Source: a virus. Taken from it: a stretch of DNA of 64,000 nt. The notes beneath the pieces are model-generated. The model did no database searches. It was given only the letters and a program-made list of their open reading frames with translations, and had not been told where the DNA came from. Shown here in pieces: positions 9,475 through 64,000 of the stretch (position 1 is its first letter; each line of letters opens with the position of its first letter). The translations under genes were made by a program, and so were the position numbers. The stretch spans positions 2,966 to 66,965 of IMG/VR virus record IMGVR_UViG_3300031215_000012. One strand, given 5' to 3'.

Positions 9475-10719
9475 TTAATTACTTCCTTTACCGTAAACGT
9501 TTCCTAAATTACTTTTGTTGTTACTTTTGTTGTTACTTTTCATATTTATAACTGTATTTTGAGCACTATCAACTATTGTTGATGCGTTTATGTTTGCTAA
9601 AGAAGAAGGAGAAAATCCATAAACGTTACCTAAAAGTAAATTTGTTAGTTTATTTTTAACTAAATTTCCTGCTTTTGCTGAAACATTTGCACTTACATCG
9701 GTTGCAAGTGCAACAATAGAATCTTTAATAAAATTAGGTGATTTAGGACTATTTAAAACGTCGTCATTTATAAATAATAATTCTTTTCTCAAATAATCTT
9801 TAACATAATAGTGATTATCTTGATTACTTAATGAATGTAAAATTCTATAAATGTTATTTTCTTCTATGTTTTGATATGAAATTTTAATTTTTTGAGCAAC
9901 TTGTGTTGGTTGTGAATTTGAAATAGATGCGAATGCTTCACCAGAATCATCAGGTTGAAATTCACAATGTGTTAAATCAAAAGAAATTTGGGTTCTATCT
10001 GTCATAGAATTTACACCTAACAATTGTTCATTTATTTCAGCTTTTTTACTTAGTGGATTTTCACTTGTAGATGGTAAATCTATTTCGTTTGCTAAATTAC
10101 CTAATCTTTTTAAGTTAGTAGTTTTCAATCCAAAATCTCTAAAATCATAAAGTTTAATTGTCATATCAAACTTTCTAAGATTATCAGGTAAAATATATCT
10201 TCTATTTACAAAATCAACTGTTATTTTTTTATATAAATCCATCAATCCAGTCATTCTTAAATCAATTGATTCTAAACAAGTTATTGTTACTTCTTTATTG
10301 AATAATGGTTTTGATATATCTCTTTTCCAAGCATCATCTAATCCATCTATTGATTGAAAGTACCAAGGATATTCTGTATTCAATTTTATTAATAATGATT
10401 TGAAATCCAATAACATATTATATCTTGCTGTATCTCCTATTGAATCTAAGTAATAAAGGGCTGAATTAGAATTTTTCTCAGCACCTAAAAATCCAGATGC
10501 ATTCATTGAACCTGCTACTGAATCTGTTTGTCCTATACCTGTAAATAATAATTTGAATGATAAGTACGTAGGGTCTTGATACAAATGTAATTTATCTGTA
10601 CTGTGTGTACTTAGTGGTTTTCTAAAGTTTTTATTTTCATTAGATTCTCCAAATATGTCTTTACCCAAAGACGAACCTCTGGACATCGCATCATTTATAC
10701 CTTCATCTAATTTACCCAT
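9475..10719 (-). CDS. tail tube-like / baseplate-tube initiator protein
   Basis: Position in baseplate operon; ITCLESIDLRM, LPDNLRKFDM tube-like segments. Confidence 0.45.
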   Translation of the reverse strand: MGKLDEGINDAMSRGSSLGKDIFGESNENKNFRKPLSTHSTDKLHLYQDPTYLSFKLLFTGIGQTDSVAGSMNASGFLGAEKNSNSALYYLDSIGDTARYNMLLDFKSLLIKLNTEYPWYFQSIDGLDDAWKRDISKPLFNKEVTITCLESIDLRMTGLMDLYKKITVDFVNRRYILPDNLRKFDMTIKLYDFRDFGLKTTNLKRLGNLANEIDLPSTSENPLSKKAEINEQLLGVNSMTDRTQISFDLTHCEFQPDDSGEAFASISNSQPTQVAQKIKISYQNIEENNIYRILHSLSNQDNHYYVKDYLRKELLFINDDVLNSPKSPNFIKDSIVALATDVSANVSAKAGNLVKNKLTNLLLGNVYGFSPSSLANINASTIVDSAQNTVINMKSNNKSNNKSNLGNVYGKGSN

Positions 10720-10722
10720 TTA

Positions 10723-12192
10723 TCACTTTTTATTTTTTACAATATTAGAACTTGCTGGCATTGGCCATTCCCTTCTAATTAGGTTAACTGTTTGTGAAAA
10801 CCCAGAACCTCTGTTCCAATGAATAGCATAATCACGAATTACATAAAAACCACTAACAAAACTATTTGCTACATAATTTTCTGGTCTTTCGTACATATCA
10901 CCATCTTGCTCTGCTGTTGTTCCTCTTTCTTTATCTCCATTCTTCAAAGCAGCATTGTTTAATAGGTTACCATCTCTTTCGTAAATAGCAACTGGAATTC
11001 TTTTATATTTTGAAACACTACTCGATATATCTTGTAATGTTACAGTTAACCCCATCTTATTTAATTCTTCGTTGTTTTGATAATTCAAAATTTTAGAATA
11101 ATTATAATTTGGGTGTAAGTTACCCTCGTTCAATGTACTAAATTGCCTACCTTGATAAATATACTTATTTTGCATTTCATAAGTTTCATCTCCAGCTTTA
11201 CCTTTTAAGATAATCATATTTGATTCAGTTCCTTCTGTTGTTAATGGATCAATAAAGAATGATGTGAATTCATATAAATCCATATTCATTACTTGACTGT
11301 ACCTTTTATAACCATTCGTCATCCATATTTCACCTGCTTTGTTAAACAAATTATAATCTTTGATGAAATTAGTTGTATTGTCATAGTTTGGGTGATTAGA
11401 TAATAAAATTTTTGGATTTTCAGAAGTAGTACCTTCACTTTCATTACTTTTATCTTGTGTTATTGCAGAAATTAAATCAGCAATTCCATCTTCTAATGAT
11501 TCATCTGTTGAAAATAATGTATTAACATTAACAAGTGTTAAGTAATAATATAAATCAACAAATGTAGTATAAAAACTTTTATCATCTTTATAGATAGTTT
11601 CAGAAGTCTTATTAATGAAATCTTTTATTGTGTTGTTTGGATTGAATCTGGGCATAGTATCATCCGTAGATGTTTCATTTGTCGCAAAACCTAATTGAAC
11701 CTCATCACAGACCGCTAAAAGGTGATTGTACGAGGTGTCAGATGGATATGATAATTGTTGTTCACTAAACAAGTTAGGAACTTTCATTATTCCAGATAAT
11801 TTATAAACTGATTTACCTTTAGAAGTAAACCCTCTAATTGTAAGAATGTCAAAATTAACTCTGATTTTCTTTTTAGCGTTGTTATTTCTACTACGAATGT
11901 ATAATTCAATTAAATCTCCATCTTTAGGGAAATCATTTTGAAATTGTTTAGTAATATCTTCGAATGTTAAATCAATAGTAGGTATAAATCCAGCAGTATT
12001 CACTGTGAATTTTATAATTGATTTTGCATCAAGTTCATATCCATTAATTTTCATATATGGTGAGCTATTACCCATATATTTGGATTTGTCTGCAACCGAT
12101 TGATTTTCGTTTTCGTAATTACTTGTTTCGATTTGTTCTAAGACAACTGACGGTTCTTTGACCGTTAATATTTCCGCTTTGTTTGATGCCAT
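10723..12192 (-). CDS. baseplate hub protein (gp27/contractile hub-like)
   Basis: C-terminal SGFYVI...F.QTVNLIRRE motif; synteny with gp5 and gp53. Confidence 0.55.
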   Translation of the reverse strand: MASNKAEILTVKEPSVVLEQIETSNYENENQSVADKSKYMGNSSPYMKINGYELDAKSIIKFTVNTAGFIPTIDLTFEDITKQFQNDFPKDGDLIELYIRSRNNNAKKKIRVNFDILTIRGFTSKGKSVYKLSGIMKVPNLFSEQQLSYPSDTSYNHLLAVCDEVQLGFATNETSTDDTMPRFNPNNTIKDFINKTSETIYKDDKSFYTTFVDLYYYLTLVNVNTLFSTDESLEDGIADLISAITQDKSNESEGTTSENPKILLSNHPNYDNTTNFIKDYNLFNKAGEIWMTNGYKRYSQVMNMDLYEFTSFFIDPLTTEGTESNMIILKGKAGDETYEMQNKYIYQGRQFSTLNEGNLHPNYNYSKILNYQNNEELNKMGLTVTLQDISSSVSKYKRIPVAIYERDGNLLNNAALKNGDKERGTTAEQDGDMYERPENYVANSFVSGFYVIRDYAIHWNRGSGFSQTVNLIRREWPMPASSNIVKNKK

Positions 12193-17069: not shown

Positions 17070-20000
17070 TTATTTTATTACTTTTACAGTAAAGGTAGAT
17101 GATGCTGCAATACTTATATATGATGTTACTCTATTAACAACTGTTACTGTATTATTAGATGCACAATATGCTATTGCATTATATTCAGACCCTGCAACAT
17201 CTAAATTACTACAAACATCTTCATCTGGTTGTACTATACAGAAATCTCCAACTACTGCTCCTGTTACAGTAACAGAATAAGCATAATCCGTGTTTCCAGA
17301 CCAAGAAACTTCTACAATTGTTTTGTCAGCAGATAATATTGTTGATCCACCAGATCCTGTAGCACCTTGTGGTCCTGTAGCGCCTTGTGGTCCTGTAGCA
17401 CCAACACCTAAATCAGTTCTATATTTTATTTCACCTGAAATTGCATCAATTACAGCAACTCTTGTATCACCTGTTGCACCTGCAACAGCTCCTTGTGTGA
17501 AGTATTTACCAGTAACTATCATATTAACATTATATGTTGCACCATATACATTTACGTATGGTATTCCATCAGCGGCAACATTTAAGTCTAATGTAAGTAT
17601 TTCTTCAAATGCACTACCATCTAATCTAGCAGAAACAAGACTAGTACTATTATCATACATATTAATTGAATTAATTTCTTGTGATGAACTATTTGTTCTT
17701 CTCAATTCAATTAATGGGTCTGCAATTGATAAATATCCAGACAATAAAGTATTGTTTGTAGGATCTGTGAAATACTTTCGTAATAGTACAGTACCAGGTG
17801 ATAATTGAACATCTGCAACTGTTGTTGCGGTTGTTCCACCTGTATCATGATATAATGATTTCATTGATAATGTTGCCCCTGACCCTGATAGTTCAGTACC
17901 AAAATTTATTGCCGGTTTTGACTGTAAATTAAATGCATTTGGTGATAATAGAAGGTTACTTAAAGTATTATCATCAATATAGTTTTCTAACTCAATTATA
18001 GAATTAGAAACTTGTATTTTTCTATAAGAATCATCAGAAATAGTAGTATTTGTCCATCTAGCATCATTTGTTGAATTAAACCATTCTGCTGTATTAGAAC
18101 TATCTTCATTTACTATTCTACTTCTATTATATGCAAAATTCCATAGTTGAATCACAGAACCAACTTTAGATTCACCTCTGTTGATGAAATATCCATTTCC
18201 ACCAGACCCTCCTATTTCATATCCTGATTTAAAAAATCCGTCTATTCCTGTTGCTCCACCTAAAAAATGAACATCGTTCACTCCAGTTACTCCATAATCT
18301 TGAACAACTATTTTAGAAATTCCAGAATCTTGAGAGGCACTAACATCTGCAACTTCTTGTAAATTTTGATTCCCTGATGCACCTATTTCACCTTGTGGTC
18401 CTGTTGCACCTTGTGGTCCTGTTGCACCTTGTGGTCCTGCAACGGTTGAATCTGCTCCTGTTACACCTTGTACTCCTTGAATACCTTGTGCTCCTGTTAC
18501 ACCTTGTGCTCCTGTTGGACCTTGTGCTCCTGTTGGACCTGTTACACCTTGAACACCTTGTACTCCTTGAATACCTTGTGCTCCTGTTACACCTTGTGCT
18601 CCTGTTGGACCTGTTACACCTTGTGCTCCTGTTACACCTTGAACACCTTGAATACCTTGTGCTCCTGTTGGACCTGTTACACCTTGTACTCCTTGAACAC
18701 CTTGTGCTCCTGTTACACCTTGTACTCCTTGAACACCTTGTGCTCCTGTTGGACCTGTTGCTCCTTTATCTCCTGTTAATCCAGTTGCCCCAATAGGCCC
18801 TTGTATATTTGAATCTGCTCCTGTTGCTCCTGTTGCCCCATCAGTTCCTGTTGGACCTGTTGCCCCTGTTGCCCCTGTTGCCCCTGTTGGACCTGTTGGA
18901 CCTGTTGCCCCTCTTTGTGCAATGGCAATTGGTGTTCCAAATTTTGCTGGAGTACCTGTACTATCATAAGAACATCTAAATGTTACGTTTGAAATATCAT
19001 CTGATATTGCATTAACTTCTATATAAATTCTATCACTATCAATAATATCAACATCGTTACCAATAATAATTTGAGCAGTTATTGTTTGTATAACTGTTGT
19101 ACTTGTAATGGTTATACTATCAGTATTTGCAACCGGTGTTTTTAATCCTGTTGCACCTAATATTCCAATTTCAACATTAAAAACTGCTCTATCATTGTTT
19201 ATATTAATTTTACCATATAATGTAACATCAATTACACCAGAAGGTAAAACTGTAAGGTTTAATTCTCCAAAATCAAAAACATTTGCCCATTCACCTACAA
19301 ATACTGGACTTGTTCCACTATTTGCAACTACATCAATTTCTGTTGCAACTCCAGATGTTGGGTAATCTCTATCTATATCTTCAAATCCAGTTGCACCAAC
19401 GACAGTTGTAGATTTTAAATAATTTAAACTTAATGCTGCAATCGGACCTGTTGCTCCTGTTGGACCTGTTGTCCCTGTTGGACCTGTAATACTTATACCA
19501 ATTGGTCCTTGTAATCCTGTTGCTCCTGTTGCTCCATCTGTTCCTGCTTGTCCAACTGGTCCTTGTGGTCCTTGTTGTCCTGTTGCTCCTGTTAATCCTG
19601 GCAATCCCTCAGCCCCTGTTGGTCCTGTTGGTCCCACTGGTCCTCCAGATGGTCCTGTAACACCAGATTCTCCTGTTGCTCCTGTAATCCCTGTTGCTCC
19701 AGATTCTCCTGTTGCTCCTGTAATCCCTGTTGCTCCTGTTTCTCCTGGGATAGTAGTTCCCATAATAATCCAATTATTGGCTGCTGATGTAGTTGCTGCT
19801 GAAGATTCATAAACCGGTGGTTTAATTGCAATAATTCCAGAATATTTAGTATAAGAAAGAACTTCTGAAATTTGATATTCAGAAGGATTTGAGGCTTTTG
19901 CGATATGGATATAAGAACCAACAACAAATGCTGTTGCATACCCATCTATTACCACATTTGGTCTTAAAGTAAAAGTAATATTACCTGTATTCTTTAGTGC

Positions 20001-20600
20001 AAATGCTGATGTGCTTGTTCCATATAAACCTTCTCCATCTCCTGTTGCCCCTTGTACACCTTGCACACCTTGTAACCCTTGTGGACCTGTTGCCCCTGTT
20101 GGTCCCACTACTGATGAATCTGCACCAGTAGCACCTGTAACACCAAATCCTGTTGCACCTGTAGCACCGATTGGTCCCGGAACAGTAGACGCTGGTCCTG
20201 AATTTCCTGTATCACCTTTTACTCCTGTTGGTCCTGTTATCCCTTGAATACCTTGAATACCTTGAATACCTTGAATACCTTGAATACCTTGAATACCTTG
20301 AATACCTGTTGGTCCTTGAATACCTGTTGGTCCTGTTGGGCCTTGAATTCCGGGTACACTTGAACCACCAGCTCCAATTTTTGTCCATTGGTTTGCATCA
20401 AAAGTTAATGATTGAACATCATTTTTTGCTTTATAGAAATATAGTCCGGCAGTTGCACCAAAACTTGTATCATTATACAATACAACCATATCTTGTTTGT
20501 ATTCATAATTCGCTCTCCATTCTTCTGCATATCTAAAGTTATCATCTAATTGATTGTGATTTAGTGGTGAATTTTGTTCTCCTCTATAATTTATGCTCAT
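17070..20600 (-). CDS. collagen-like (Gly-X-Y) fibre protein
   Basis: Several GATG/GPTG/GxQ triple-helix blocks separated by globular domains; N-terminal RG..NSPL.H.QLDDNF anchor motif. Confidence 0.85.
18391..18910. repeat. 9-bp-unit mosaic tandem repeats in the collagen region
   Basis: Recurring cctgttaca/ccttgtgct/cctgttgga units. Confidence 0.85.
20242..20304. repeat. perfect 9-bp tandem repeat (ccttgaata x7) encoding GIQ x7
   Basis: Counted directly in sequence. Confidence 0.9.
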
Positions 20601-26605: not shown

Positions 26606-27742
26606 CTAAGCACCACATCCACCACCACCAAGAGCACAACTATCACCAGAATTGTTACCACCATCAAAAATAGATGATGTATTAACAACTTTAGCTTCAC
26701 TAATATTATCTGACGCTGAAAGTTTCTTATTCCCAGTAATTTTAGATTTTGTTCTTGTGTAATATGCACCTGTTTTTAATCCTTGTTTCCAAGCATACAT
26801 TAACGCACTTGAAATCTTAGAGTATTTAGCATCTGGGTGATAAACATTCAATGATTGTGATTGGTCAACATATTTATTTCTAATAACAGACAAATCTAAT
26901 AATACTTTTTGAGATATTTCCCATACAGTTTTGTATCTAAATCTTACATCTTCTGGTATTTCAATAATATCTTGTACACTACCTTCTTTTGATATAATCT
27001 TATTTCTAATATCCTCAGACCATAAATCTAATTCGATTAGTTCCTTAACAAGGTATTTGTTTACTACTATAAATTCTCCATCTCCAACCATTCTTGTGAA
27101 TACATTAGATGTAATAGGTTCGAAACATTCGAATGCTCCCAATAATATAGCACTTGATGCTGTTGGCATTAATGCCAATAACAATGAATTTTTCATTGGT
27201 ATCGGTTTTCCTGGTTCTAATGGTGACCATCCTTCTATGTAAGTTTCACCTTTTGAATACTTAGAACCTTCCCAAGCAGGATAATTTTCGCCAGTTTCAA
27301 CAGCAAGATTCATACTTTCTGTAAGTGCCGCCTTGTACATTGCTTCAAATATCTGTTCATTCCATACTTTTGCTTCTTCTGATTCAAAAGATATTTTCTT
27401 TTTTGCAAAGAAATCTGCTAATCCGGCAACACCAATTGCAATTGCTCTTTGTTCTTCACCAGCTTTTTTACTCCAATCATCAGACCATTTGTTGTTATTG
27501 ATAACTTGGTTTAATGCTCTAACTAATACTTTAACAGATTTTGCAATTGACTTAATGTTATCGTGTTCTGCTAAGTTTACTGATGCAAGTGTACATTGTG
27601 GTGTATATTCTGGTTTTGATGCTTGCATAATCTCAATACAGTTATGTACTAATATATCATTAGCATAAAAGTTGTGATTACTCTGAACGGTTATATCATA
27701 AACTTGTTCAGTTTTTTTAAGTTTTTTTATTTTTAGTCCCAT
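26606..27742 (-). CDS. nrdA: class Ia ribonucleotide reductase alpha, C-terminal half fused to 34-aa C-intein
   Basis: VYDITVQSNHNFYANDILVHN|CIEI; CTLASVNL, MPTASS, DQSQSLN, GLKTGAYY, C-terminal Cys pair. Confidence 0.92.
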   Translation of the reverse strand: MGLKIKKLKKTEQVYDITVQSNHNFYANDILVHNCIEIMQASKPEYTPQCTLASVNLAEHDNIKSIAKSVKVLVRALNQVINNNKWSDDWSKKAGEEQRAIAIGVAGLADFFAKKKISFESEEAKVWNEQIFEAMYKAALTESMNLAVETGENYPAWEGSKYSKGETYIEGWSPLEPGKPIPMKNSLLLALMPTASSAILLGAFECFEPITSNVFTRMVGDGEFIVVNKYLVKELIELDLWSEDIRNKIISKEGSVQDIIEIPEDVRFRYKTVWEISQKVLLDLSVIRNKYVDQSQSLNVYHPDAKYSKISSALMYAWKQGLKTGAYYTRTKSKITGNKKLSASDNISEAKVVNTSSIFDGGNNSGDSCALGGGGCGA

Positions 27743-27974
27743 AATAATTTAAAATATTATATTTAATTTGTTTCACATCAGAAAGTATATCTTCTAAATA
27801 TACATATTTCCATTTTTTAATATTGCAGTATTTAATACCTGCTTCTTTTTTTAGTTGTTCGTTTTTATATCCATCTTCTCCATTAACAAACCCTTTAATG
27901 TCTAATAAGTATTTTTTGTCATCTATTATTAAAAGAAAATCTGGTAAATAATATATATTATCTTCTTTTTTCAA
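27717..27974 (-). pseudogene. truncated PD-(D/E)XK homing endonuclease remnant between nrdA halves
   Basis: YLPDF...LDIKG motif, TTG start, N-terminal part missing. Confidence 0.65.
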
Positions 27975-27990
27975 AACAGAACAAACAAAC

Positions 27991-29478
27991 TTATGAGTTG
28001 CTAACTATGTCTAAGACATCATATTCTAATAAGTCTTTTGCCATGACATATCCACGATTCTTTGTGAAAATTTTATGTTCTGGTGTACATCTTATCGTCT
28101 TACCCGTGTCCTCGTCCTCTATTTCCATAATTTTTGCATCTTCATTCATAAGAGCACCTGCAGTTATTAATTTATATTCTACTGTGTCTTTTTGAATGTC
28201 TTTTGATTTCACAAATATTTGTTCTCCTTGGTTGTATAATTCAACTATTTCAGAAATCTCCATTTTTTTGTAGATATTATTAATCTTTACCTCTAATATA
28301 GAATCACCTGACAAACAAAGATTACTTTGTGCAATAACACCAATGTTATCTTGCATGTTGATTTTATTTGCATTGTCCTTATAAAATACATAAGGTGTTC
28401 CTGATTCAACTTGTGAACGAATGATTGCATCCCATATTTTTCTTGGGTCAATTTGTGTTCCAATACCTAAATCAATTGCTTTTTGATAGTGTTCTTTGAA
28501 TTCAACACCGTGGATTTCGTGAAACGCTGTTAAACCGTTTTCTTTGATTTCATTAGGACAAAATAAGTAATAAGGTGTTCCATTACTTAATGCTTCCATA
28601 AAAACATCATCAATAGTAACTGCAGTAAACAAATCTCTTGCTCTGTTTAGTTCTTCTCCAATTGGCAATCTTAGTTCTAAGAATTCTAAAATATCTCTGT
28701 GCCAAGTTGATAAGTATAATGCACACGAACCAGAACGATTTCCTTGTTTATAGAATCTCATGTGAGATTGAACCATGTCAGCGAACCTTACAACACCACC
28801 AGCATATCCTTTGAATGATTTAACAAGACTTCTTGAACTTCTTATCCTGTCGATATTCAATCCAATTCCAGAACCCTCTTTTGACCCGTGTGAAATCTTA
28901 TCAAGTGTTTCATTAATACCTTCAATAGAATCATCTTTAAGTGTTGTAAGGTTACAAGAAATTAATCCATTTCTACCGTCAATACCCGCGTTTGATAAAA
29001 TAGGTGTTGCAAAGTTTATTTTCTTTTCATATAATTCATCTAACAACATTCTTCTTTCTTTGAATGAATTTGGCCATAAATGTGTTGCAACCCTGTTGTG
29101 CATCATTGATGGTATTTCTACTGGTGTTCCTTTGTCACCTTTTTTAGAATATTTTGTAAGAAATGTAGAAGCAGCAAACGAATCAAATTTATCATCTACT
29201 AATTTGTGTTCTACCTCTAACAATTTAGATTGTCTTGAAATAAGAATTCTCCCACCTAATAATGCATAATCAGGGTGTTCAATCTGCAAATCAGCAGCTT
29301 GGAAGGCAATGATTTCATCAATGTCTGTTGCTGTCATACCATCTGTAATGTGTGGTACAACTCTTTGAAATAACTTATCAGGGTTAACTTGCAATCCTTT
29401 AGATTGTTGTTTAAGTCTTGTTAAGATTTTATTTGGTTGAAACGATTGTCGTTTTCCAGACCTTTTTATGATTTTCAT
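27991..29478 (-). CDS. nrdA: class Ia ribonucleotide reductase alpha, N-terminal half fused to 108-aa N-intein
   Basis: ATP cone, ATPIL.NAG, LISC, GIG, ESGTPY, QSNL|CLSGD..., block B CTPEHKIFT, then TAA. Confidence 0.92.
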   Translation of the reverse strand: MKIIKRSGKRQSFQPNKILTRLKQQSKGLQVNPDKLFQRVVPHITDGMTATDIDEIIAFQAADLQIEHPDYALLGGRILISRQSKLLEVEHKLVDDKFDSFAASTFLTKYSKKGDKGTPVEIPSMMHNRVATHLWPNSFKERRMLLDELYEKKINFATPILSNAGIDGRNGLISCNLTTLKDDSIEGINETLDKISHGSKEGSGIGLNIDRIRSSRSLVKSFKGYAGGVVRFADMVQSHMRFYKQGNRSGSCALYLSTWHRDILEFLELRLPIGEELNRARDLFTAVTIDDVFMEALSNGTPYYLFCPNEIKENGLTAFHEIHGVEFKEHYQKAIDLGIGTQIDPRKIWDAIIRSQVESGTPYVFYKDNANKINMQDNIGVIAQSNLCLSGDSILEVKINNIYKKMEISEIVELYNQGEQIFVKSKDIQKDTVEYKLITAGALMNEDAKIMEIEDEDTGKTIRCTPEHKIFTKNRGYVMAKDLLEYDVLDIVSNS

Positions 29479-29547: not shown

Positions 29548-30504
29548 TTAGAATTCATCATCAAATATACCTTCGTTTGTAGTTGGTATATCAACTCTTG
29601 TGTAACCTCCACCTGTTCTTCTTTCAAAGAAATTGTTTTTGTTATCTAACCCTATTTTTTTCATATAATCTAATGGGTTTCTTGTTTTGAAATGTATATC
29701 ATCTGTGAAATCGTTCATAACAACATCAACAACAAATTCAACGTATTGTAACATCATTTCTTTTGTTAAACCGGGTAACCCATCAGGTAAACTTTCTTGT
29801 ACAAATCTTTTTTCTGTTTCATAACATGATAATATGATTTCAGTAATTCTTTCTTTAGATGGTTTGAATTCATCTTTAACATATTTCTTGAACATTTGTA
29901 GTGCGAATTCATAGTGGAAACTTTCATCTTTAAGAATCAATGTATTCATCTCAGCAAGTCCAGGCATCTTGTTTCTACTTCTGAAATAAAATACACCAGC
30001 GAATACAGATGAAAATGCAATACCTTCAACACAAGCGAACGCTATAAGTTTTTCAACAAATGTACCGTTGTTTAACCAACTTTCAGCCCATTCTGCTTTT
30101 TCTCTAACTGCCACATTAGTTTTCATTGAATCAAATAATTCAGCTTGTTCTGCTGGGTCTTTGATATACGTATCAATCAATAATGAATATCCATTTGCAT
30201 GAACTTGTTCCATAAATGCTTGATGTGTATAGTAATACTTTGCTTCTTCAATATCAACAGCATCTATTACATTAGAACAAAGGTTTTCTATTACCAATCC
30301 ATCTGAAATTGTGAAAAATGCTAAAATGTTTTTTAGATAAAATTTTTCGTCATTACTTAACTCATCGTATTTGTCTTGTGCAAGGTTAACTTCTTCAGCA
30401 ACCCATGTTTGTTTTTCAGCAGACTTATAAGCATCCCATAAGTCTTGATTTTTAATTGGGAAAATTGAATATCTCTTTTCCGTGTCTGAATTTTTTAAGT
30501 ACAT
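29548..30504 (-). CDS. nrdB: ribonucleotide reductase beta subunit
   Basis: W.AEEV, EQVHANGY, VEGI.FSS.F, DES.H, NFFERR. Confidence 0.95.
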   Translation of the reverse strand: MYLKNSDTEKRYSIFPIKNQDLWDAYKSAEKQTWVAEEVNLAQDKYDELSNDEKFYLKNILAFFTISDGLVIENLCSNVIDAVDIEEAKYYYTHQAFMEQVHANGYSLLIDTYIKDPAEQAELFDSMKTNVAVREKAEWAESWLNNGTFVEKLIAFACVEGIAFSSVFAGVFYFRSRNKMPGLAEMNTLILKDESFHYEFALQMFKKYVKDEFKPSKERITEIILSCYETEKRFVQESLPDGLPGLTKEMMLQYVEFVVDVVMNDFTDDIHFKTRNPLDYMKKIGLDNKNNFFERRTGGGYTRVDIPTTNEGIFDDEF

Positions 30505-39039: not shown

Positions 39040-39267
39040 TTATTTTTTAGGTTCTATCCAGTCTAACTTTACAACTTCAACTGGAGATATGCTCAATTTA
39101 GAATCAATTGCTCTAATTTTAACTCTACCACCATCTGGATTTTCAATTAGTTCATAAGTGAAATCGTTTTTTGGGTCATCAGAAAATTCTACTTTGATAG
39201 TAACCTTGTCACCTTTTTTAAAGTTAGGTGTCTTTGCTTCGTTTAATATGTCGTTTAGTGATTTCAT
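39040..39267 (-). CDS. putative internal head protein
   Basis: MKSLNDILNE start; SH3-like body. Confidence 0.5.
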   Translation of the reverse strand: MKSLNDILNEAKTPNFKKGDKVTIKVEFSDDPKNDFTYELIENPDGGRVKIRAIDSKLSISPVEVVKLDWIEPKK

Positions 39268-40990: not shown

Positions 40991-41065
40991 AGTAGTTGAT
41001 TTAGTTATATTGATGACTCCTTCACCAACAAATACAAGATACGAAATTAATTTGACATAAACTAA
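40991..41065 (-). promoter_or_regulatory. early promoter plus hairpin leader
   Basis: TTAG-N20-TATCTTGT; TTGGTGA..TCATCAA hairpin. Confidence 0.65.
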
Positions 41066-41116
41066 TTTTTGCCAGTATTTATTTTTACTGGCGTTTATTA
41101 GATTGTTAAATACTTT

Positions 41117-41305
41117 ATGAAAAACTTACAATATTTCCTTAATGAAGAACAAGAAGAACAAGAAGAACCAACAACTGCTGAAAAGATAGTTGATGATGGT
41201 ATCGACAAAGACGAAAAGAAACAAATAGAAGAAGATGCTGAAGAAGCAAAAAGAATTGCTGCAGACATTATCAAATCTAAAGAAAAAAACGGTAAAGAAG
41301 ACTAA
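41117..41305 (+). CDS. small acidic putative internal head peptide
   Basis: MKNLQYFLNE start, TTAAATA at 41106; paralogue of 51388..51600. Confidence 0.6.
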   Translation: MKNLQYFLNEEQEEQEEPTTAEKIVDDGIDKDEKKQIEEDAEEAKRIAADIIKSKEKNGKED

Positions 41306-42033
41306 CCAATTTCATCTACAATTGCTTTAATAGTTTTTAATGATAAAGTTTCTTTACTAATCTTTAAAATATCTACAACTTTGTTAATCTTTAGTTGTCT
41401 TTTACTATCTTTTGGACACAATTCAACAAATTGACTTCTTAAATTGTTATAAACACTTCTGTATTTTGTGTCGATTGCGTTCCACAATTCTTCACGTTCT
41501 AATTCTTCACCCAATTTATATAAATCTTTCAATATCCAATTCATTGCAGCGTAATCTACAATTTTACCTTCCAAGGCAACTTGAGTTCCAATATCTCTGA
41601 TCCGTAATGAATGAAAAATAGACTTCAATGCTAATTTTTTGTCATAATCAGCTGCAACTATCAATTTCTTCTTACCTTTAACGAAACTATTGTCTGATAC
41701 GGTGCTTATAGACTTACGTAATCGAACTTTATCAAGGATATGTGTAAAGTGTACACTTTCTTTTAAAATGTGCTTAGATGGCAAGAAAACACATTCTAAT
41801 GCTTGTATGTCTTGATTTAACAACAATTGTTCAAATTGTGCAACTGTAACATGATGAATATCTATACTTTCAGATTCAGTAAATGTCTTTTGAATCACAT
41901 AATAATCTTCATCACTATCTTTATTATTAGTTCCATATACATGTGAACCAAATCTATACATATTTAAGGTGTTTTCTGATTTTAATATTTTATCTATCAT
42001 TTTCAATTTATTTGTTAGGTAAATTAATTTCAT
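41302..42033 (-). CDS. nucleotidyltransferase (Pol-beta superfamily)
   Basis: FGSHVYGT...SDEDY; start likely MIDKIL. Confidence 0.75.
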   Translation of the reverse strand: MKLIYLTNKLKMIDKILKSENTLNMYRFGSHVYGTNNKDSDEDYYVIQKTFTESESIDIHHVTVAQFEQLLLNQDIQALECVFLPSKHILKESVHFTHILDKVRLRKSISTVSDNSFVKGKKKLIVAADYDKKLALKSIFHSLRIRDIGTQVALEGKIVDYAAMNWILKDLYKLGEELEREELWNAIDTKYRSVYNNLRSQFVELCPKDSKRQLKINKVVDILKISKETLSLKTIKAIVDEIG

Positions 42034-42416: not shown

Positions 42417-42494
42417 AATTTATTTTTAAGTTACATTGGTAATAACTCCCTCACCAACAATACTAAGATACTAAAAAACCCCCAATAAAACAAA
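42417..42494 (-). promoter_or_regulatory. early promoter plus hairpin leader
   Basis: TTTG-N20-TATCTTAG; TTGGTGA..TTACCAA hairpin. Confidence 0.75.
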
Positions 42495-58622: not shown

Positions 58623-58697
58623 ACGTCTTAATATTCATATTAAGTCCATGTATAGCATCTTCAAATCCAAATCTTTTATTATTCATATAAATATTTA
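58623..58697. repeat. 75-bp direct repeat block A (copy at 60183..60257)
   Basis: One mismatch by eye alignment. Confidence 0.85.
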
Positions 58698-58730
58698 GAA
58701 ATAGTGTAAAAGGTGATATTTATCCTACTT

Positions 58731-58789
58731 TTATAATTTACTCTTTTATTTAAAAAATCTAATATTTGATTGCATCAACATAAATAAAC
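58731..58789. repeat. 59-bp direct repeat block B (copy at 60061..60119)
   Basis: Two mismatches by eye alignment. Confidence 0.85.
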
Positions 58790-58864
58790 CTACTAGTGTG
58801 TTTAAAATAATAAACAAAAAATCTCCTACCAAATTAATGATAAGAGATTTAATATTTAATTTTA

Positions 58865-59140
58865 TTACAAACCTAACATTGCAATATCTTTATGGTTTAA
58901 TCCAATTTCAAAAGCAATCTTTTTATTATATTCTTTCATTTTACCATTTAATGTAAATAAACGATATATTGTCCATAAACTTGCACCACCAAGTGTGCAA
59001 TAGAATAATATTTGTTTCCCCATTGCACCCATAGAACCGTATGACCAACCGAAGAATAAAAATAATATCCATATTTTTCCTGTGTCTAATTTTCTACCAT
59101 TAAATATTGCTATTTTATCACTACTACTGTATTCACTCAT
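58865..59140 (-). CDS. TM2-domain membrane protein
   Basis: ILFLFFG...G..GKQILFY.TLGG..LW. Confidence 0.7.
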   Translation of the reverse strand: MSEYSSSDKIAIFNGRKLDTGKIWILFLFFGWSYGSMGAMGKQILFYCTLGGASLWTIYRLFTLNGKMKEYNKKIAFEIGLNHKDIAMLGL

Positions 59141-59172
59141 TTTTTTATATTTTATGTTTAACTCTTAATAAT

Positions 59173-59979
59173 TTACTTACTTAACTTAACTAACGCATTA
59201 TCTAATTTATTGGGGTCTAATTTAAATAGATATGTACTACCACTGTACTTTGATAACTCTTTAATATAAACTTTAACCTCTTTATTTTTTTTAAGGATAT
59301 TAAAAAATTCTTTATCTTCAAAAATAAATCTATCACTGTATAATAATATAGTCTCATCATACACAATACTATCAGTAGAACTATCTTTCACCTTTATTGA
59401 ATATCGCCCCATATCATTCACAGTCGCTTTCACTTTTGAACTACCATATTCAAATAAAAATAATTGAAGTACCTCTTTATCAGTTACTAACACATTTACT
59501 GATAATTTGTTATTATCCGTAGCTGAATTACTAAAAGAACCTTTAGTCTCCTGTGATACATAACCCGATTTTGTTTCTTCTTTAAACTCATCAACGAAAT
59601 AATTAACCTTCCAATTCCCCATTTTTTCATATTCTAAGGCTTTTGCGATTGAATCCGTTATATGAAGTTTATTTAAAGAATCTAATTTATTCTTTTCTTC
59701 AATTTCATTTCGTTCAATTATAATATTAGCTTCATCGAAAATATTAGAAGCACTCATACCATTAAGTCTATTTAAGACCATAGGTATGTTTAGAAACCCC
59801 CCATCTTCTTCAATTACCACTGAAATTGAACGCTGAAGTGAATCTGATTTAGATTTAGAAAATCCACTCTTAATTTCTTCTAGTGATGATTTATATGTTA
59901 TCATATTCGTTCCATCAATTTTTTGACTACAGCTAAATAATGCAACCATTAATCCTAATCCTAATAATACCTTTTTCAT
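59173..59979 (-). CDS. lipoprotein
   Basis: Re-assigned start MKKVLLGLGLMVALFSC (lipobox). Confidence 0.7.
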   Translation of the reverse strand: MKKVLLGLGLMVALFSCSQKIDGTNMITYKSSLEEIKSGFSKSKSDSLQRSISVVIEEDGGFLNIPMVLNRLNGMSASNIFDEANIIIERNEIEEKNKLDSLNKLHITDSIAKALEYEKMGNWKVNYFVDEFKEETKSGYVSQETKGSFSNSATDNNKLSVNVLVTDKEVLQLFLFEYGSSKVKATVNDMGRYSIKVKDSSTDSIVYDETILLYSDRFIFEDKEFFNILKKNKEVKVYIKELSKYSGSTYLFKLDPNKLDNALVKLSK

Positions 59980-60020
59980 AATTTTAATTTGTTTTTTGTT
60001 TTTAATTGTTTTTATTTTAA

Positions 60021-60052
60021 CAAAGATACAACATTTATTCTGTTCTACCAAA
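60021..60052 (-). promoter_or_regulatory. consensus Bacteroidota housekeeping-sigma promoter
   Basis: TTTG-N20-TATCTTTG. Confidence 0.85.
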
Positions 60053-60238
60053 TTTATTTCTTATAATTTAATCTTTTATTTAAAAAATCTAATATTTGAT
60101 TGCATCAATATAAATAAACTTATCGGTATGCTTAATGTCACCACTAATGTTAAACCCAGCTTTCTCTAGTAATTCTTGTAACACGTCTTAATATTCATAT
60201 TAAGTCCATGTATAGCGTCTTCAAATCCAAATCTTTTA

Positions 60239-60544
60239 TTATTCATATAAATATTTATATGAATAATGTGTTTCTTTTTCAGCAGTTTCTAAATCAGTAA
60301 AGAAGTTGTTAAGTATTCTTACTGGTTTACCTCCATATTCTACGAGAACGAATTCAAAATCTTTTGAATCAATGAAAACGTTAGTGATAGTATCAATAAA
60401 AGGAACAGAAAGTATTTTCACAGGACTAGGTGTAACTCCTCTGTTGTTAGCAGGAGCGGCTCTTTCGTTAGTATTAATAAATATACCAAAACTGTTATCT
60501 TTAGGGTAAAGTGTTTTACCTATGTGTGAAATATTTGCTTTCAT
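60239..60544 (-). CDS. hypothetical protein, tandem paralogue 1
   Basis: Highly similar to 60544..60858. Confidence 0.7.
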   Translation of the reverse strand: MKANISHIGKTLYPKDNSFGIFINTNERAAPANNRGVTPSPVKILSVPFIDTITNVFIDSKDFEFVLVEYGGKPVRILNNFFTDLETAEKETHYSYKYLYE

Positions 60545-60858
60545 TAGAATGTCTTAATAGGTTTCATTTTTTCTTTGTCAATTTCAGTACTCTTTTCTGC
60601 GTGTTCTAAATTATCAAAGAAGGAATTAATAATTCTTACTTCTGAACCTTGATATTCTACAAGAACAAATTCATGTTTACCAGTAAATTCAAATGATTCT
60701 ATTACAGTAGTAAAAGGAACAGATAGTATTTTAACTGGACTTGGTATTTCTCCTCTGTTGTTAGCAGGAGTGGCTCTTTCGTTAGTATGAATGAATATAC
60801 AATAGCTGTTATCTTTAGGGTAAAGTGTTTTACCTATGTGTGAAATGTTTACTTTCAT
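60544..60858 (-). CDS. hypothetical protein, tandem paralogue 2
   Basis: NISHIGKTLYPKDNS shared with 60239..60544. Confidence 0.7.
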   Translation of the reverse strand: MKVNISHIGKTLYPKDNSYCIFIHTNERATPANNRGEIPSPVKILSVPFTTVIESFEFTGKHEFVLVEYQGSEVRIINSFFDNLEHAEKSTEIDKEKMKPIKTF

Positions 60859-61376: not shown

Positions 61377-61463
61377 ATAGTAGTATTAAAGTTAAACGTT
61401 ATGTGAAGGTTAGTCCCTCACACCAACAAAGTAAAGATAAGCATAATAAATGATATAACCTAA
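61377..61463 (-). promoter_or_regulatory. early promoter plus hairpin leader
   Basis: TTAG-N20-TATCTTTA; TGTGAGGG..CCTTCACA hairpin. Confidence 0.7.
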
Positions 61464-61658
61464 TTTTGGAGAGATTTTATTTCGCACAATAATTTGCACC
61501 TATCAAAGATTTTATTACTTTGGAAGTGTTTTCTATACTAAATCGTGTTTTATGAATTTCAACATTAGATTCATCAACCTCAGATTGTTGTAAAATCACA
61601 ACAGGACCACTTGCGTTAACTGTTTTTAATAGTGATAATAGATTGTCAATATTCATAA

Positions 61659-61949
61659 TTATTTAAGTTTAGTTAATTTTTGAATATATTCTGCAACAAC
61701 ATTTGTTTCTTCTTTAAGGATTGATGTAAATTGTTTATAATGGTTAGCGACATCATTCCATTCCCAGAATGTTTTACCAATAGGACTAGCAAGAGCGCTA
61801 CGTTTTCCGTTAACGGTTCTTTGTACATCGAATGATGATCCAAAGAACAAGATGTTTAATTGTGCGTTACCTTGATTAGTAACGATATTAACATAAGGTC
61901 TAGACCCTTTAATTGTTTTAACTTTTTTAATTTCGATTTCAAATGACAT
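61659..61949 (-). CDS. hypothetical early protein
   Basis: Follows promoter cassette. Confidence 0.55.
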   Translation of the reverse strand: MSFEIEIKKVKTIKGSRPYVNIVTNQGNAQLNILFFGSSFDVQRTVNGKRSALASPIGKTFWEWNDVANHYKQFTSILKEETNVVAEYIQKLTKLK

Positions 61950-62032
61950 AGTACAAGATTTAGAGTTAAACTGTTCAGGGTCTATCCCTCACCAGCAATA
62001 CTAAGATACTAAAAATATTTAAATTAAACAAG
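61950..62032 (-). promoter_or_regulatory. early promoter plus hairpin leader (near-duplicate of 63391..63474)
   Basis: CTTG-N20-TATCTTAG; AGGG..CCCT hairpin. Confidence 0.75.
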
Positions 62033-62034
62033 GA

Positions 62035-62083
62035 TATAGATTAGGAGTTCATATTGTGTATTACATTAACATCTGTGTTAGGG
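62035..62083 (+). other. attI-like recombination site, copy 1
   Basis: 38 bp identical to 63523..63560; TAAC-N6-GTTAGGG core. Confidence 0.5.
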
Positions 62084-62317
62084 TCAACCAATTTCTAGGT
62101 AGTCTTTGTATTTTAAAGGTTTCATTCCTTTGCGATCACATTCAATACAAAATTCAGAGTATCTCTCAAATTGGCAATCGCTAACACTAGGTATAATTAA
62201 TGCCTCACATTCGTCACTTTTAAGCCACATATCAATTCGTTTTTCTGTATTGTCAATGTCTTTGCTCCAAAATAATTGGTCTTGGTAATCAAAGAACTTT
62301 CGTAAATATTCTCTCAT
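62084..62317 (-). CDS. cassette gene 1 (hypothetical), overlaps attC-like site
   Basis: Stop codon abuts GTTAGGG. Confidence 0.55.
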   Translation of the reverse strand: MREYLRKFFDYQDQLFWSKDIDNTEKRIDMWLKSDECEALIIPSVSDCQFERYSEFCIECDRKGMKPLKYKDYLEIG

Positions 62318-62372
62318 TTTATAAAGTTTTTAGTTTAATAAATCGGCACTAACCATACCCTTTTCATTAGGG
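62179..62372 (+). mobile_element. attC-like site 1 (degenerate R')
   Basis: CGCTAAC..GGTATAATTAATGCC / GGCACTAACCATACC..ATTAGGG. Confidence 0.5.
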
Positions 62373-62376
62373 TGCA

Positions 62377-62598
62377 TTAACCCGCTCGAAAATCAGATAG
62401 TAATTTAAACGGTTCGCCTTTTATACCAGAGTAATCCCCTTCTTCCGTAATTGTCGCTTTATCCCAAATATCTTTACCTTCATCAAGAGAGCCTTTTTTA
62501 GCAAGTTCAACAACTTCTGTTTCGTTATTAGCTACTATTACGTGACCCATATAAGCATCGTAATTAAATTCCGTGTGTTCTATTAAGTATATTTTCAT
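62377..62598 (-). CDS. cassette gene 2 (hypothetical)
   Basis: Start re-assigned to MKIYLIEH; ends in FRAG. Confidence 0.6.
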   Translation of the reverse strand: MKIYLIEHTEFNYDAYMGHVIVANNETEVVELAKKGSLDEGKDIWDKATITEEGDYSGIKGEPFKLLSDFRAG

Positions 62599-62610
62599 AA
62601 ATATAACTGT

Positions 62611-62701
62611 TGCTAACAAGCAATATATGTAATTGCCTATTAAGGTTTTACTAAATTTCAAGTTTCTACAAGGCAACTACATATATTGCCAGCCGTTGTG
62701 T
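62611..62701 (+). mobile_element. attC-like site 2
   Basis: TGCTAAC-aa-19-bp arm...arm (18/19 paired)-cagcc-GTTGTGT. Confidence 0.7.
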
Positions 62702-62707
62702 GTAATA

Positions 62708-62902
62708 CTAAACTAGTAACTTTTTAAGATTTTGAGAAACCATTTTTAATTGTCGCCATTTAATATCACATTTCATAGCATTTTCAAAGTCGTTATCTTC
62801 TTTGTACTCTGTGCAATAGTCATTTAACTGCTTACATCTTGCATCAATTTTACTTATTTCACTTACTAATTTTTCGTATAAAGATTTTTTCATTTTAATC
62901 AA
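62708..62902 (-). CDS. cassette gene 3 (hypothetical)
   Basis: Bounded by complementary GTTGTGT/ACACAAC. Confidence 0.55.
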   Translation of the reverse strand: MIKMKKSLYEKLVSEISKIDARCKQLNDYCTEYKEDNDFENAMKCDIKWRQLKMVSQNLKKLLV

Positions 62903-62924
62903 TTTTATGCGAAACCATCGTACT

Positions 62925-63056
62925 ACACAACACCATATATAAAAAATAGCTTTTAAAGCGTTTAATTCGTTGGTCTTTGCTTGTTTATATTTTTAGTTTT
63001 TTAATTGGTTGTTACTGCTTTTCTACACGCTACATTTCATATACAACACGTTATGT
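62925..63056 (+). mobile_element. attC-like site 3
   Basis: ACACAAC..tatataaaaaatagc / gctacatttcatatac..GTTATGT. Confidence 0.6.
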
Positions 63057-63075
63057 GTAATGCTACTCAATCTAC

Positions 63076-63390
63076 TTACCAATCTTTTTTCATTTCTTCA
63101 TTCCAGCAAGTTGCACAGCATATATTATCTCCCATTAAATCCTCAAAAGTGCCACAATAATAACAACTGAAAGTAACTATCTCGTTTATTTTTCCATTTA
63201 GTAAAATAAATTGGTCGAAGTCCCTGCCTTCAATTCTGAATCTGATTACAAGTTCATTTTTTTTACAAAGATTTTCATTAAATTCAACGATACCTATTTG
63301 TGCAGGTGCAGGGTTTGGAAATCCACCAAGGGGTTGTAATGTTTTTACTTGTTGACCTGCCCATATTTCAAAACCATTAATATCTTTCAT
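63076..63390 (-). CDS. hypothetical early protein (YopX-like start, C-terminal Cys cluster)
   Basis: Start re-assigned to MKDINGFEI; the track's start lies inside the promoter. Confidence 0.6.
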   Translation of the reverse strand: MKDINGFEIWAGQQVKTLQPLGGFPNPAPAQIGIVEFNENLCKKNELVIRFRIEGRDFDQFILLNGKINEIVTFSCYYCGTFEDLMGDNICCATCWNEEMKKDW

Positions 63391-63474
63391 AGTACAAGAT
63401 TTAGAGTTAAACTGTTCGAGGACTATCCCCTCACCAGCAATACTAAGATACACATTTATTATGACAATAACAAA
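63391..63474 (-). promoter_or_regulatory. early promoter plus hairpin leader
   Basis: TTTG-N20-TATCTTAG; GAGG..CCTC hairpin. Confidence 0.75.
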
Positions 63475-63522
63475 TTTATAGAGAAATAGTTTTATTATTT
63501 TTATTTATAAGAATAGAAATCT

Positions 63523-63571
63523 TATAGATTAGGAGTTCATATTGTGTATTACATTAACATATATGTTATAA
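63523..63571 (+). other. attI-like recombination site, copy 2
   Basis: 38 bp identical to 62035..62072; TAAC-N6-GTTATAA core. Confidence 0.5.
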
Positions 63572-63584
63572 ACAATAAAAATTA

Positions 63585-63806
63585 TTACTTAGGTATTTTT
63601 GGTAAAGGCATCCAGTATTTTACATTACTTGGTTTTCCAGTCCAATCTTTTTGCCACCCCGTTATATTTTGTTCTTTAAAGTAAAATATTATTTCAATTT
63701 CATCTTTATACACTTCATTGTGGTTTTCGTCTGTGTGGCTTTGTAGTACATTTTTAGCTACCAAGTAAAAACCCGCTTTGTTTGGTAATTCTGTTTTCCA
63801 TTCCAT
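63585..63806 (-). CDS. cassette gene 4 (DUF551-like)
   Basis: W...LP...G.YLV...VKYWMPLP; bounded by GTTATAAA/TTTATAAC. Confidence 0.65.
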   Translation of the reverse strand: MEWKTELPNKAGFYLVAKNVLQSHTDENHNEVYKDEIEIIFYFKEQNITGWQKDWTGKPSNVKYWMPLPKIPK

Positions 63807-63823
63807 AATTTTAATTAAAATAT

Positions 63824-63881
63824 TTATAACACTGCATTAATAACAATTCGTTCCTCACGGTTATTACACTGTTCGTTAGGG
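63824..63881 (+). mobile_element. attC-like site 4 (58 bp)
   Basis: TTATAAC..taataac / gttatta..GTTAGGG. Confidence 0.55.
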
Positions 63882-63887
63882 CAAATA

Positions 63888-64000
63888 CTAATTTTCGTCT
63901 ATAAATACAGTTTTAGTCATGTCTAACCAAACAGGCGGTTGCGTTTTCCCACTTAATACACCTATCCATAATTTACCGTGAAAAAGAAACTTTAACCTTT
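63888..64000 (-). CDS. cassette gene 5, partial
   Basis: ...RLKFLFHGKLWIGVLSGKTQPPVWLD...EN*; stop 6 nt from GTTAGGG. Confidence 0.55.
   Translation of the reverse strand, partial: RLKFLFHGKLWIGVLSGKTQPPVWLDMTKTVFIDEN

Follow-up and report, generated by a model that had tools for sequence, protein, structure and literature searches.

The DNA analysed here, referred to as the window, comprises the final 64 kb (G000:C1:2966-66965) of a linear 66,965-bp virus record from IMG/VR, whose completeness was estimated at 25% by CheckV. No terminal repeat was detected on the 66,965-bp contig, and the region of interest, a cassette-like run of small genes, therefore sits at the contig end. It holds seven small ORFan genes at 61.6-64.0 kb, here called gA to gG, which all lie on the minus strand and are transcribed from right to left. 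Several of them are bracketed by an inverted repeat: read in the sense of transcription, a word starting with GTT precedes the ATG by 8-46 nt, and the stop codon is followed, at a distance of 1-20 nt, by the reverse complement of this word, which ends in AAC. The features are, by position (promoters being predicted):

58623-60257, no strand assigned: segment of two genes, flanked by direct intergenic repeats
61659-61949, minus strand: gA, ORFan of 96 amino acids (aa) without a Pfam or PHROG family
61950-62083, minus strand: putative promoter/leader module upstream of gA, containing the core GTATCTTAGTATTGCTGGTGAGGG (62009->61986) and the 46-nt repeat D3 (62035-62080)
62084-62317, minus strand: gB, ORFan of 77 aa, bracket score 3
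62377-62598, minus strand: gC, ORFan of 73 aa with a weak match to PHROG 5444 and no convincing bracket
62611-62701, no strand assigned: hp2, the sole strong hairpin, between gC and gD, flanked by TGCTAAC and GTTGTGT
62708-62893, minus strand: gD, 61 aa, with a homologue in the metagenome contig L089 (70% aa identity)
62929-63053, minus strand: el3, conserved intergenic module, non-hairpin
63076-63390, minus strand: gE, Cys-rich ORFan of 104 aa, with a homologue in contig L003 (84% aa identity)
63391-63584, minus strand: putative promoter/leader module preceding gE; the core and D3 occur here a second time, and the palindrome TAACATATATGTTA (63555-63568) is part of this copy
63585-63806, minus strand: gF, 73 aa, weak match to DUF551 (E = 9e-4, below the cut-off)
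63827-63878, minus strand: el4, a conserved module of 52 nt, TAAC...GTTA
63888->64000, minus strand: gG, 3′ end of a gene cut off by the contig end

A family search with the 10 small proteins of 60.2-63.8 kb gave no match above the cut-off, the best being that of gF to DUF551. For gA, no relative was found among viral contigs.

A first-pass annotation of the sequence had interpreted this region as an integron-like array of gene cassettes in a jumbo phage, with the genes antisense to the attC sites. We find that conserved intergenic modules surround unrelated genes, that deletion variants occur between repeated modules, and that attC hairpins are missing at most of the proposed sites. The earlier observation is partly confirmed and its integron interpretation partly supported; the array is not a canonical integron. 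As the best explanation we favor, with a probability of roughly one half, a region of regulatory cassettes shuffled by homologous recombination, similar to the PeSLs of T4-type phages. In the available parts of two reports, PeSLs are repeated cassettes of a promoter and a stem-loop upstream of ORFans in hyperplastic regions, and mediate indels and mini-circles (Arbiol et al. 2010, PMC2839356; Comeau et al. 2014, PMC4122927).

Two direct repeats connect the regions upstream of gA and gE, namely 61947-62009 with 63388-63451 (64 nt, 94% identity) and 62035-62080 with 63523-63568 (46 nt, 96%). The module core GTATCTTAGTATTGYTGGTGAGGG was also detected at three other intergenic places (near 42447, 55775, and 24655). 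Five copies of the promoter module were aligned in the window, displaying the layout TTTG/CTTG-N20-TATCTTAG-TATTGYTGGTGAGGG.... The flavobacterial -33 element is TTTG. The available part of PMC9723704 gives the flavobacterial sigma-A -7 box as TAnnTTTG, spanning -12 to -5 in Flavobacterium, with a variant TAnnTTGY; TATCTTAG matches the box at 7 of 8 positions. These similarities point to host-type (i.e. Bacteroidota-style) promoter activity of the intergenic modules. Straight after the core comes a small hairpin of the GGG-loop-CCC type; it differs between copies, and to the eye the changes appear to compensate one another. A sigma-70 promoter scan, which is unsuited to Bacteroidota, returned 26 sites (39 expected), and a terminator scan returned none at 61-64 kb. 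Read on the minus strand, el3 begins with AACGTGTTGTATATGAAATGTAGCG and finishes with GCTATTTTTTATATATGGTGTT.

The first-pass annotation had listed four imperfect palindromes as attC sites. We folded each of them as DNA and compared it with 200 shuffles; a convincing fold was obtained for only one. In 62611-62701 (hp2), a 19-bp stem (62620-62638/62671-62689) with 18 of 19 positions paired and one mismatch encloses a 32-nt loop (z = -3.1 on the plus and -3.9 on the minus strand). This hairpin is separate from that of the promoter module, has no T run, and has no sequence relative in any of the loci compared. The palindrome at 63824-63881 is weak (z = -0.9 on the plus strand and -3.2 on the minus strand; -7.2 kcal/mol); within it, el4 displays an inner 7-bp stem (TAATAAC/GTTATTA) and the motif GAGGAACGAATT. 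The remaining two failed: 62925-63056 is less stable than its shuffles (z = +1.3 and +2.2), and 62179-62372 has a z of 0.03. As 139 of the 194 nt of the latter lie within gB, its first heptamer (CGCTAAC at 62179) is coding-internal. CACTAAC at 62347-62353 is a better-placed partner for GTTAGGG at 62077, with which it likewise pairs at 6 of 7 positions. The heptamers at 62077 and 63565 end none of the listed palindromes; they are the ends of the 46-nt direct repeat described above.

The individual heptamers were all found where the annotation had placed them, i.e. GTTAGGG at 62077 and 63875, CGCTAAC at 62179, GTTGTGT at 62695, ACACAAC at 62925, GTTATGT at 63050, GTTATAAA at 63565, and TTTATAAC at 63823. 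The reported complementarities between heptamers that flank a gene (7/7, 8/8, and 6/7) and the location of all genes of the run on the minus strand were also correct. A GTT heptamer within 0-19 nt of the stop codon was present for five of six genes, the sixth heptamer beginning with ATT, as the annotation itself had said.

To compare the modules between genomes, metagenome contigs were scanned with the core pattern. This yielded 116 stretches, among them many chance matches; the extended context of the core was present in a subset (L001, L017, L019, L053, L056, L073, L094, and L111, as well as L100 with eight copies). When all loci were compared with the window by BLAST, three of them (L100, L089, and L029) had intergenic elements of 61.9-63.9 kb in common with it. 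For example, L100 6951-7138 corresponds to window 63573-63386 (94% over 188 nt) and L100 6263-6314 to window 63878-63827, i.e. el4 (96%), and in both cases the neighboring genes are unrelated. A tblastn search of 14 loci with 15 window proteins retrieved homologues for only two, gD (in L089) and gE (in L003). Since the modules are common to several contigs while proteins are rarely shared, it is the intergenic modules that are conserved and not the genes between them. The start and end of el3 are homologous to positions 39100-39252 of the isolate phage P12002L, a much smaller and unrelated phage, and show weak homology to L100 8530-8625. Both el3 and el4 are bordered by unrelated sequence at either side, i.e. 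these modules part from the genes at both ends. Exact 24-mer and 28-mer patterns taken from el4 and el3 had no match in viral contigs.

The scanned loci showed some further arrangements of promoter-like sequence. In L100, the promoter module is present in three tandem copies with a period of 121 nt (10985-11292). A second class of repeated promoter, TTTG-N19-TATATTTG, a good fit to the canonical Bacteroidota form, was noted at L089 1020-1090 and 1350-1435, where two small genes follow. In seven metagenome loci (L011, L044, L069, L078, L103, L117, and L119), the 19-nt core pattern stands directly before a conserved sequence ...CGAAACGGGTCTGAC...GTCGAAAGAGTAGACTCCAAC..., which looks like a bacterial non-coding RNA gene; an Rfam search of three such loci returned no family.

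Comparison of the loci also revealed how genes have been replaced. The gene order of L089 differs from that of the window: the gD homologue precedes the promoter module that in the window precedes gE. Stubs of 10-11 codons, representing the starts of gE and of a gene of L100, are retained in L089, and one of them is fused to the gD homologue at ATTAAAATG. Between L003 and the window only gE is shared; the DNA homology (63065-63393) begins 3 nt ahead of the ATG and extends 11 nt past the stop codon, and the flanks are unrelated. Thus, the homology of gE and of the gD homologue breaks at the start codon, not at GTT. An identical tail, TATTACACACAAC, has three different continuations: in the window it leads into hp2, in L089 into an unrelated hairpin, and in L100 into ATATATGTTAATG. 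We also noted that the gE homologue of L003 is flanked by a 21-nt direct repeat, GTAATACAACGAATTAATAAC (9901-9925 and 10332-10356), which contains AACGAAT, a word also found in el3 and el4. AACGAAT is not a general motif of the contig, and neither ACACAAC nor GTTGTGT recurs as an intergenic word in the window.

Population variants were sought in Logan contigs of four salt-lake metagenome runs, aligned to 58-64 kb. One joint, 62041->63505, deletes gB to gE between the two promoter copies. A second, 58657->60218, with 40 shared nt, lies between 75-nt direct repeats; here, one contig of run X2 omits 58658-60217 (1560 nt). The omitted stretch carries the genes of the two-gene segment (58865-59140 and 59173-59979), around which the repeats are 58623-58697 = 60183-60257 (98.7%) and 58731-58789 = 60061-60119 (96.6%). 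Contigs of runs X2 and X3 go back by 1489 nt near this segment, which suggests a circle or a tandem duplication. The depth was 55-107x on el3 (93-107x) and to the right of 63874, compared with about 5x elsewhere, and loose ends were found at 62925, 62929, and 63053. A candidate two-gene cassette in L079, picked up via GTTGGCAA, was rejected as a probable chance match within coding sequence.

From these data, we infer homologous recombination as the mechanism of gene turnover. The region would form the plastic portion, made up of small genes, of a large T4-like Flavobacteriia phage, and two kinds of module would alternate in it. The first kind would be conserved and regulatory, comprising a host-type promoter with its leader, two further promoter-like elements (el3 and el4), and one terminator-like hairpin (hp2). 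The second would be a swappable gene unit made up of a 5′ untranslated region, a small open reading frame (ORF), and a short tail. Gain, loss, and replacement of genes would proceed chiefly by homologous recombination between the repeated intergenic modules, with occasional exchange at microhomology around the start codon. The GTT at the upstream edge of a gene module may be the last part of the -7 region, following an A/T-rich TATA-like box and ending in ...(G/T)TGTT. As for the bracket, its two arms might act as paired ends of a transcription unit or be relics of recombination sites.

Several findings weigh against this explanation. Homology blocks repeatedly stop at AAC| or |GTT(A), as in el4, which runs from TAAC to GTTA; five different sequences precede the AAC of D3, and three different continuations follow ACACAAC. 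We read such block ends as edges of conserved modules, but a site-specific process would look alike. The population variants are derived from assembled contigs rather than reads, and joints induced by repeats during assembly are possible. Promoters, start sites, and terminators are predictions from the sequence. Moreover, the model fails to predict the enrichment of GTT...AAC repeats that flank genes.

This enrichment was quantified by applying a simple ORF caller to the contig and to 16 related loci and scoring all same-strand genes. Of 288 genes, 130 were usable; those with less than 25 nt upstream or less than 20 nt downstream were left out. As a control, the upstream region of one gene was paired with the downstream region of another. 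A bracket score of at least 5 was reached by 13 of the 130 genes (3.07 expected), a score of at least 6 by nine (1.08 expected), and a score of at least 8 by three (0.13 expected). When all 64 anchor triplets were scanned, GTT alone stood out (13 versus 3.24 expected), and the reversed orientation, with AAC upstream and GTT downstream, gave three cases against 2.43 expected. Complementarity of the heptamers flanking a gene, as asserted by the first-pass annotation, is therefore beyond chance across the phage family. Its remark that the ends of a single palindrome match each other less well also held for the intergenic regions: a score of at least 5 was found for 3 of 113, where the control rate of the main test equals about 2.7, no separate control having been run. 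In the isolate phage P12002L, 8 of 28 genes scored at least 5 (1.14 expected), compared with 1 of 25 in Danklef_1 (1.04 expected). The enrichment is thus about fourfold in this phage family and about sevenfold in P12002L.

Within the window, the first bases of the unit are complementary to the box after the gene for gF (8/8), gD (7/7), and gB (6/7), while gC, gE, and gA fail. On the minus strand, gF is enclosed by GTTATAAA (plus-strand positions 63823-63830) and TTTATAAC (63565-63572) with a score of 6, gB by GTTAGTG (62347-62353) and CCCTAAC (62077-62083), and gD, over a longer stretch, by GTTGTGT-AGTAC (62919-62931) and GTATTACACACAAC (62695-62708), where 12-13 of 14 positions match. Other bracketed genes include g8664 of L100 and g4362 of L001 (both 13/14) as well as g6725 of L100 and g633 of L089 (both 9/10). 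The L100 gene g8664 is unrelated to gD, yet it is enclosed by gD's arms. In P12002L, a methyltransferase gene lies between GTTAGGCAC and GTGCCTAAC (9/9). One gene is common, together with its arms, to P12002L and Danklef_1, the homology extending from TTATATACnTT-GTT... to ...AAC-GT.

In the listed cases, GTT lies 3-5 nt after an A/T-rich TATA-like box, within ...(G/T)TGTT, and the conserved GTT is probably the end of the promoter -7 region. This would explain why conservation stops there, but not the complementary ...AAC after the stop codon. The ends of gD, gF, L100 g8664, and L001 g4362 are paired in both minimum free energy and centroid folds (of the RNA or of one DNA strand), which speaks for the feasibility of such pairing and for nothing beyond it. 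Mismatches between arms, counted on the sense strand, comprised six G.T, one A.C, and four others, which hints weakly at pairing within the sense strand or the mRNA.

In a classical integron, attC sites have the structure R''-L''...L'-R', crossover takes place at G|TT, and recombination depends on IntI. The R'' core box reads RYYYAAC. The R' core box reads GTTRRRY in the available part of PMC9892861. Measured against these consensus sequences, none of the eight boxes of the first-pass annotation fits fully, four have one mismatch, and four have two. Like the classical cassettes, the units described here contain one small gene each, their first bases are complementary to a box just after the gene, they feature the triplets GTT and AAC, and the 3′ box often overlaps the stop codon. 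Unlike them, they have promoter-like elements of their own, and the gene moves without the element that follows AAC. Furthermore, no IntI, L boxes, or extrahelical bases were found, and boundaries occur at both ends of the intergenic element. Since an inverted repeat reads identically on either strand, the proposed antisense orientation of the genes with respect to attC cannot be told from the bracket.

Qi et al. (2023) described clusters of attC sites without an integrase (CALINs) in virulent phages, P12002L among them, and one P12002L site was recombined by IntI1 (PMC9892861, available part). The statement that integrons are rarely reported in phages is outdated by that work. The window might accordingly be seen as a CALIN whose units end in G|TTxxxx...xxxxAAC, with the R' and R'' boxes belonging to folded single-strand sites and the cassettes moved by a host integrase or an as yet unseen phage integrase. 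We consider this unlikely, albeit a serious possibility. It is the signature of integron cassettes that is enriched around the genes, in the specific order of GTT upstream and AAC downstream, and arms often start with GTTAG or GTTAT, like GTTRRRY. The layout of hp2 (xxCTAAC-spacer-stem...stem-spacer-GTTxxxx) resembles that of a P12002L intergenic site at 30005-30059 (GCCTAAC-stem-loop-stem-GTTAGCA), and the bracket is strong in P12002L, which has a published CALIN. That two unrelated Polaribacter phages share a gene including its arms also fits. More generally, the window resembles the CALIN of P12002L in belonging to a Flavobacteriia phage without an integrase, in having small or accessory genes flanked by GTTxxxx...xxxxAAC and an intergenic hairpin with AAC/GTT ends, and in the homology of el3. 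It differs in that most intergenic elements are not hairpins, none scores like a real attC site in the covariance model described below, and its sites are known from sequence alone.

Against a CALIN stands, first, the good fold at a single one of the four proposed sites. Between AAC and GTT, the spacer can be as short as 6 nt (ATATAT) or as long as about 120 nt (the non-palindromic el3), and the 19-bp stem of hp2 has no bulged base, hence no extrahelical bases. An attC site would be expected to remain linked to its gene, with breaks at G|TT alone. Instead, the hairpin does not accompany gD, a different one being present directly after the identical TATTACACACAAC in L089; el3 and el4 part from genes at both ends, and for gE and the gD homologue the break is located at the start codon. 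Of the features expected of integron cassettes, the GTT...AAC brackets around genes are real; co-travel of attC with the gene and boundaries exclusively at G|TT are not supported.

Recombinase searches gave a similar picture. As the first-pass annotation had said of the window, no integrase was detected: tyrosine recombinase (PF00589) had no match in the whole 66,965-bp record (25% complete), in two related fragments of 46-48 kb (G001 and G002), or in the complete genome of P12002L. Neither serine recombinase nor Y1 transposase matched in the contig, G001, or G002. In Danklef_1 (L133), a tyrosine recombinase match of 92.8 bits was observed at 41006-41455, across one in-frame TGA; the annotated product at this place is an "integrase" of just 43 aa.

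For attC sites, a covariance model (R1) was purpose-built from nine class-1 attC sites of plasmid records with a hand-written structure; RNAalifold applied to 12 sites had produced no structure owing to alignment offsets. R1 recovered all nine training sites and five of five held-out sites (aadA16, arr-3, IMP-1, dfrA27, and dfrA14; 15.5-72.7 bits). It returned nothing at E<=10 in the window, L100, L089, L029, or L003; with filters off, the top match at 61400-64000 reached 10 bits and covered only the inner 7-bp stem of el4. This negative result is weak for AT-rich phage sites, because R1 scores at most 12.1 bits in P12002L, which has published attC sites. In Rfam, no family reached the gathering score across the whole window, and two chance-level matches were obtained at E<=10 in 61400-64000. 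To our knowledge, Rfam holds no attC family.

A more speculative possibility is that Flavobacteriia phages have a cassette system of their own, in which transcription units bounded by GTT...AAC are swapped between promoter-bearing slots by a structure-specific process. The folded single strands would be the substrate of a host enzyme, or else the pairing of the ends would exert its effect in the RNA of the unit. Such a process would need no phage integrase, because the complete genome of P12002L shows the signature without a tyrosine recombinase match. If this holds, the CALINs published for phages would represent the visible part of that system and not strays from bacterial integrons.

It appears improbable that the gene modules are miniature mobile elements, with GTT...AAC as terminal inverted repeats, that are cut and pasted between fixed intergenic slots by an unknown structure-specific enzyme (e.g. 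an HUH or other single-strand DNA transposase). The edges at AAC| and |GTT are sharp alike, the arms are gene-specific with only the terminal triplets in common, and the arm mismatches hint at one folding strand. No Y1, serine, or tyrosine recombinase was found in 160 kb of the phage group, however, nor was any target-site signature. Since identical arms surround ORFs that are unrelated between the window and L100, the arms seem to belong to the slot rather than to the cargo. That the brackets are functionless chance matches in AT-rich DNA plus a common TATAAA-type motif is very doubtful: GTTATAA.../...TTATAAC does account for six of the 13 best-scoring cases, these 13 also include a probably spurious one (L058 2860-3066, inside the promoter core), and the gene calls come from a simple ORF caller, but the excess, though smaller, persists once the GTTATAA class is removed (at least 5, 7 versus 2.95; at least 6, 5 versus 1.18), arms of 13/14 occur in both L100 and L001, just one of 64 anchors is enriched, and P12002L, though not Danklef_1, shows the enrichment independently.

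Compared with PeSLs, as presented in the parts of that literature covered here, the favored explanation of regulatory cassettes shuffled by homologous recombination shares a repeated intergenic motif upstream of ORFans in a hyperplastic region, the motif bearing a promoter (here a predicted one). It also shares the conservation of motifs between related phages that differ in the genes in between, as well as indels or replacements between repeats with possible joints of circles or duplications (here from contigs alone). Differences are the Bacteroidota-style instead of sigma-70-style promoter, a stem-loop that is either a small hairpin after the promoter core or absent, and the gene-specific GTT...AAC brackets, for which the covered part of the PeSL literature holds no description. 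A further point of comparison is provided by morons, autonomous units of promoter, gene, and terminator inserted between phage genes. Here as there, small accessory genes with a promoter of their own are exchanged between otherwise unrelated phages (e.g. the unit of P12002L and Danklef_1). Unlike morons, most units described here have no local terminator hairpin, and the inverted repeat spans the whole gene.

Turnover of small ORFans in large phages is poorly understood beyond T4-type coliphages. The region would represent a counterpart in Bacteroidota phages of regulatory-cassette shuffling, with a measurable GTT...AAC bracket signature in addition, which relates it to the integron sites recently claimed for virulent phages. 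Should the brackets be recombination sites, phages lacking any integrase themselves would serve as a reservoir for cassette-type exchange and also as its vehicle. Should they be the ends of transcripts or portions of promoters, programs that predict attC sites would be misled in AT-rich phage genomes, and the published phage CALINs would need re-reading. With the bracket statistic, the question of phage attC sites becomes directly testable, for instance in the isolate P12002L.

Regarding the remainder of the contig, the G+C content of the window is about 29%, and nearly all genes are carried by the minus strand. The larger genes match phage families, i.e. those of a baseplate wedge, a collagen-like tail fibre, the T4-type large terminase, and a helicase, as well as class I ribonucleotide reductase (a split large subunit and a small subunit). 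The only DNA match in the phage collection (140 nt, 73%) was to the Polaribacter phages Danklef, and the 852-aa helicase had no relatives among viral contigs. A tRNA scan found none. The designation as a jumbo phage is no more than plausible, given that 67 kb correspond to 25% of the genome according to CheckV.

Three other loci of the window were noted. The large subunit of ribonucleotide reductase is encoded by two ORFs (26606-29478, minus strand), of which 27991-29478 corresponds to the N-terminal part (PHROG 84) and 26606-27742 to the C-terminal part; the 248 nt between them (27743-27990) contain no Rfam family at gathering score, and the arrangement could be an intron or a split gene. The collagen-like tail fibre gene (17070-20600, minus strand; 1176 aa) has many internal repeats at 18.3-20.3 kb and a local G+C content of 0.40, compared with 0.29 elsewhere. 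Finally, two paralogous genes of 101 and 104 aa are arranged in tandem at 60239-60858 (minus strand) with 79% nucleotide identity over 278 nt, and a perfect palindrome of 30 nt (60238-60267) is located just downstream of them.

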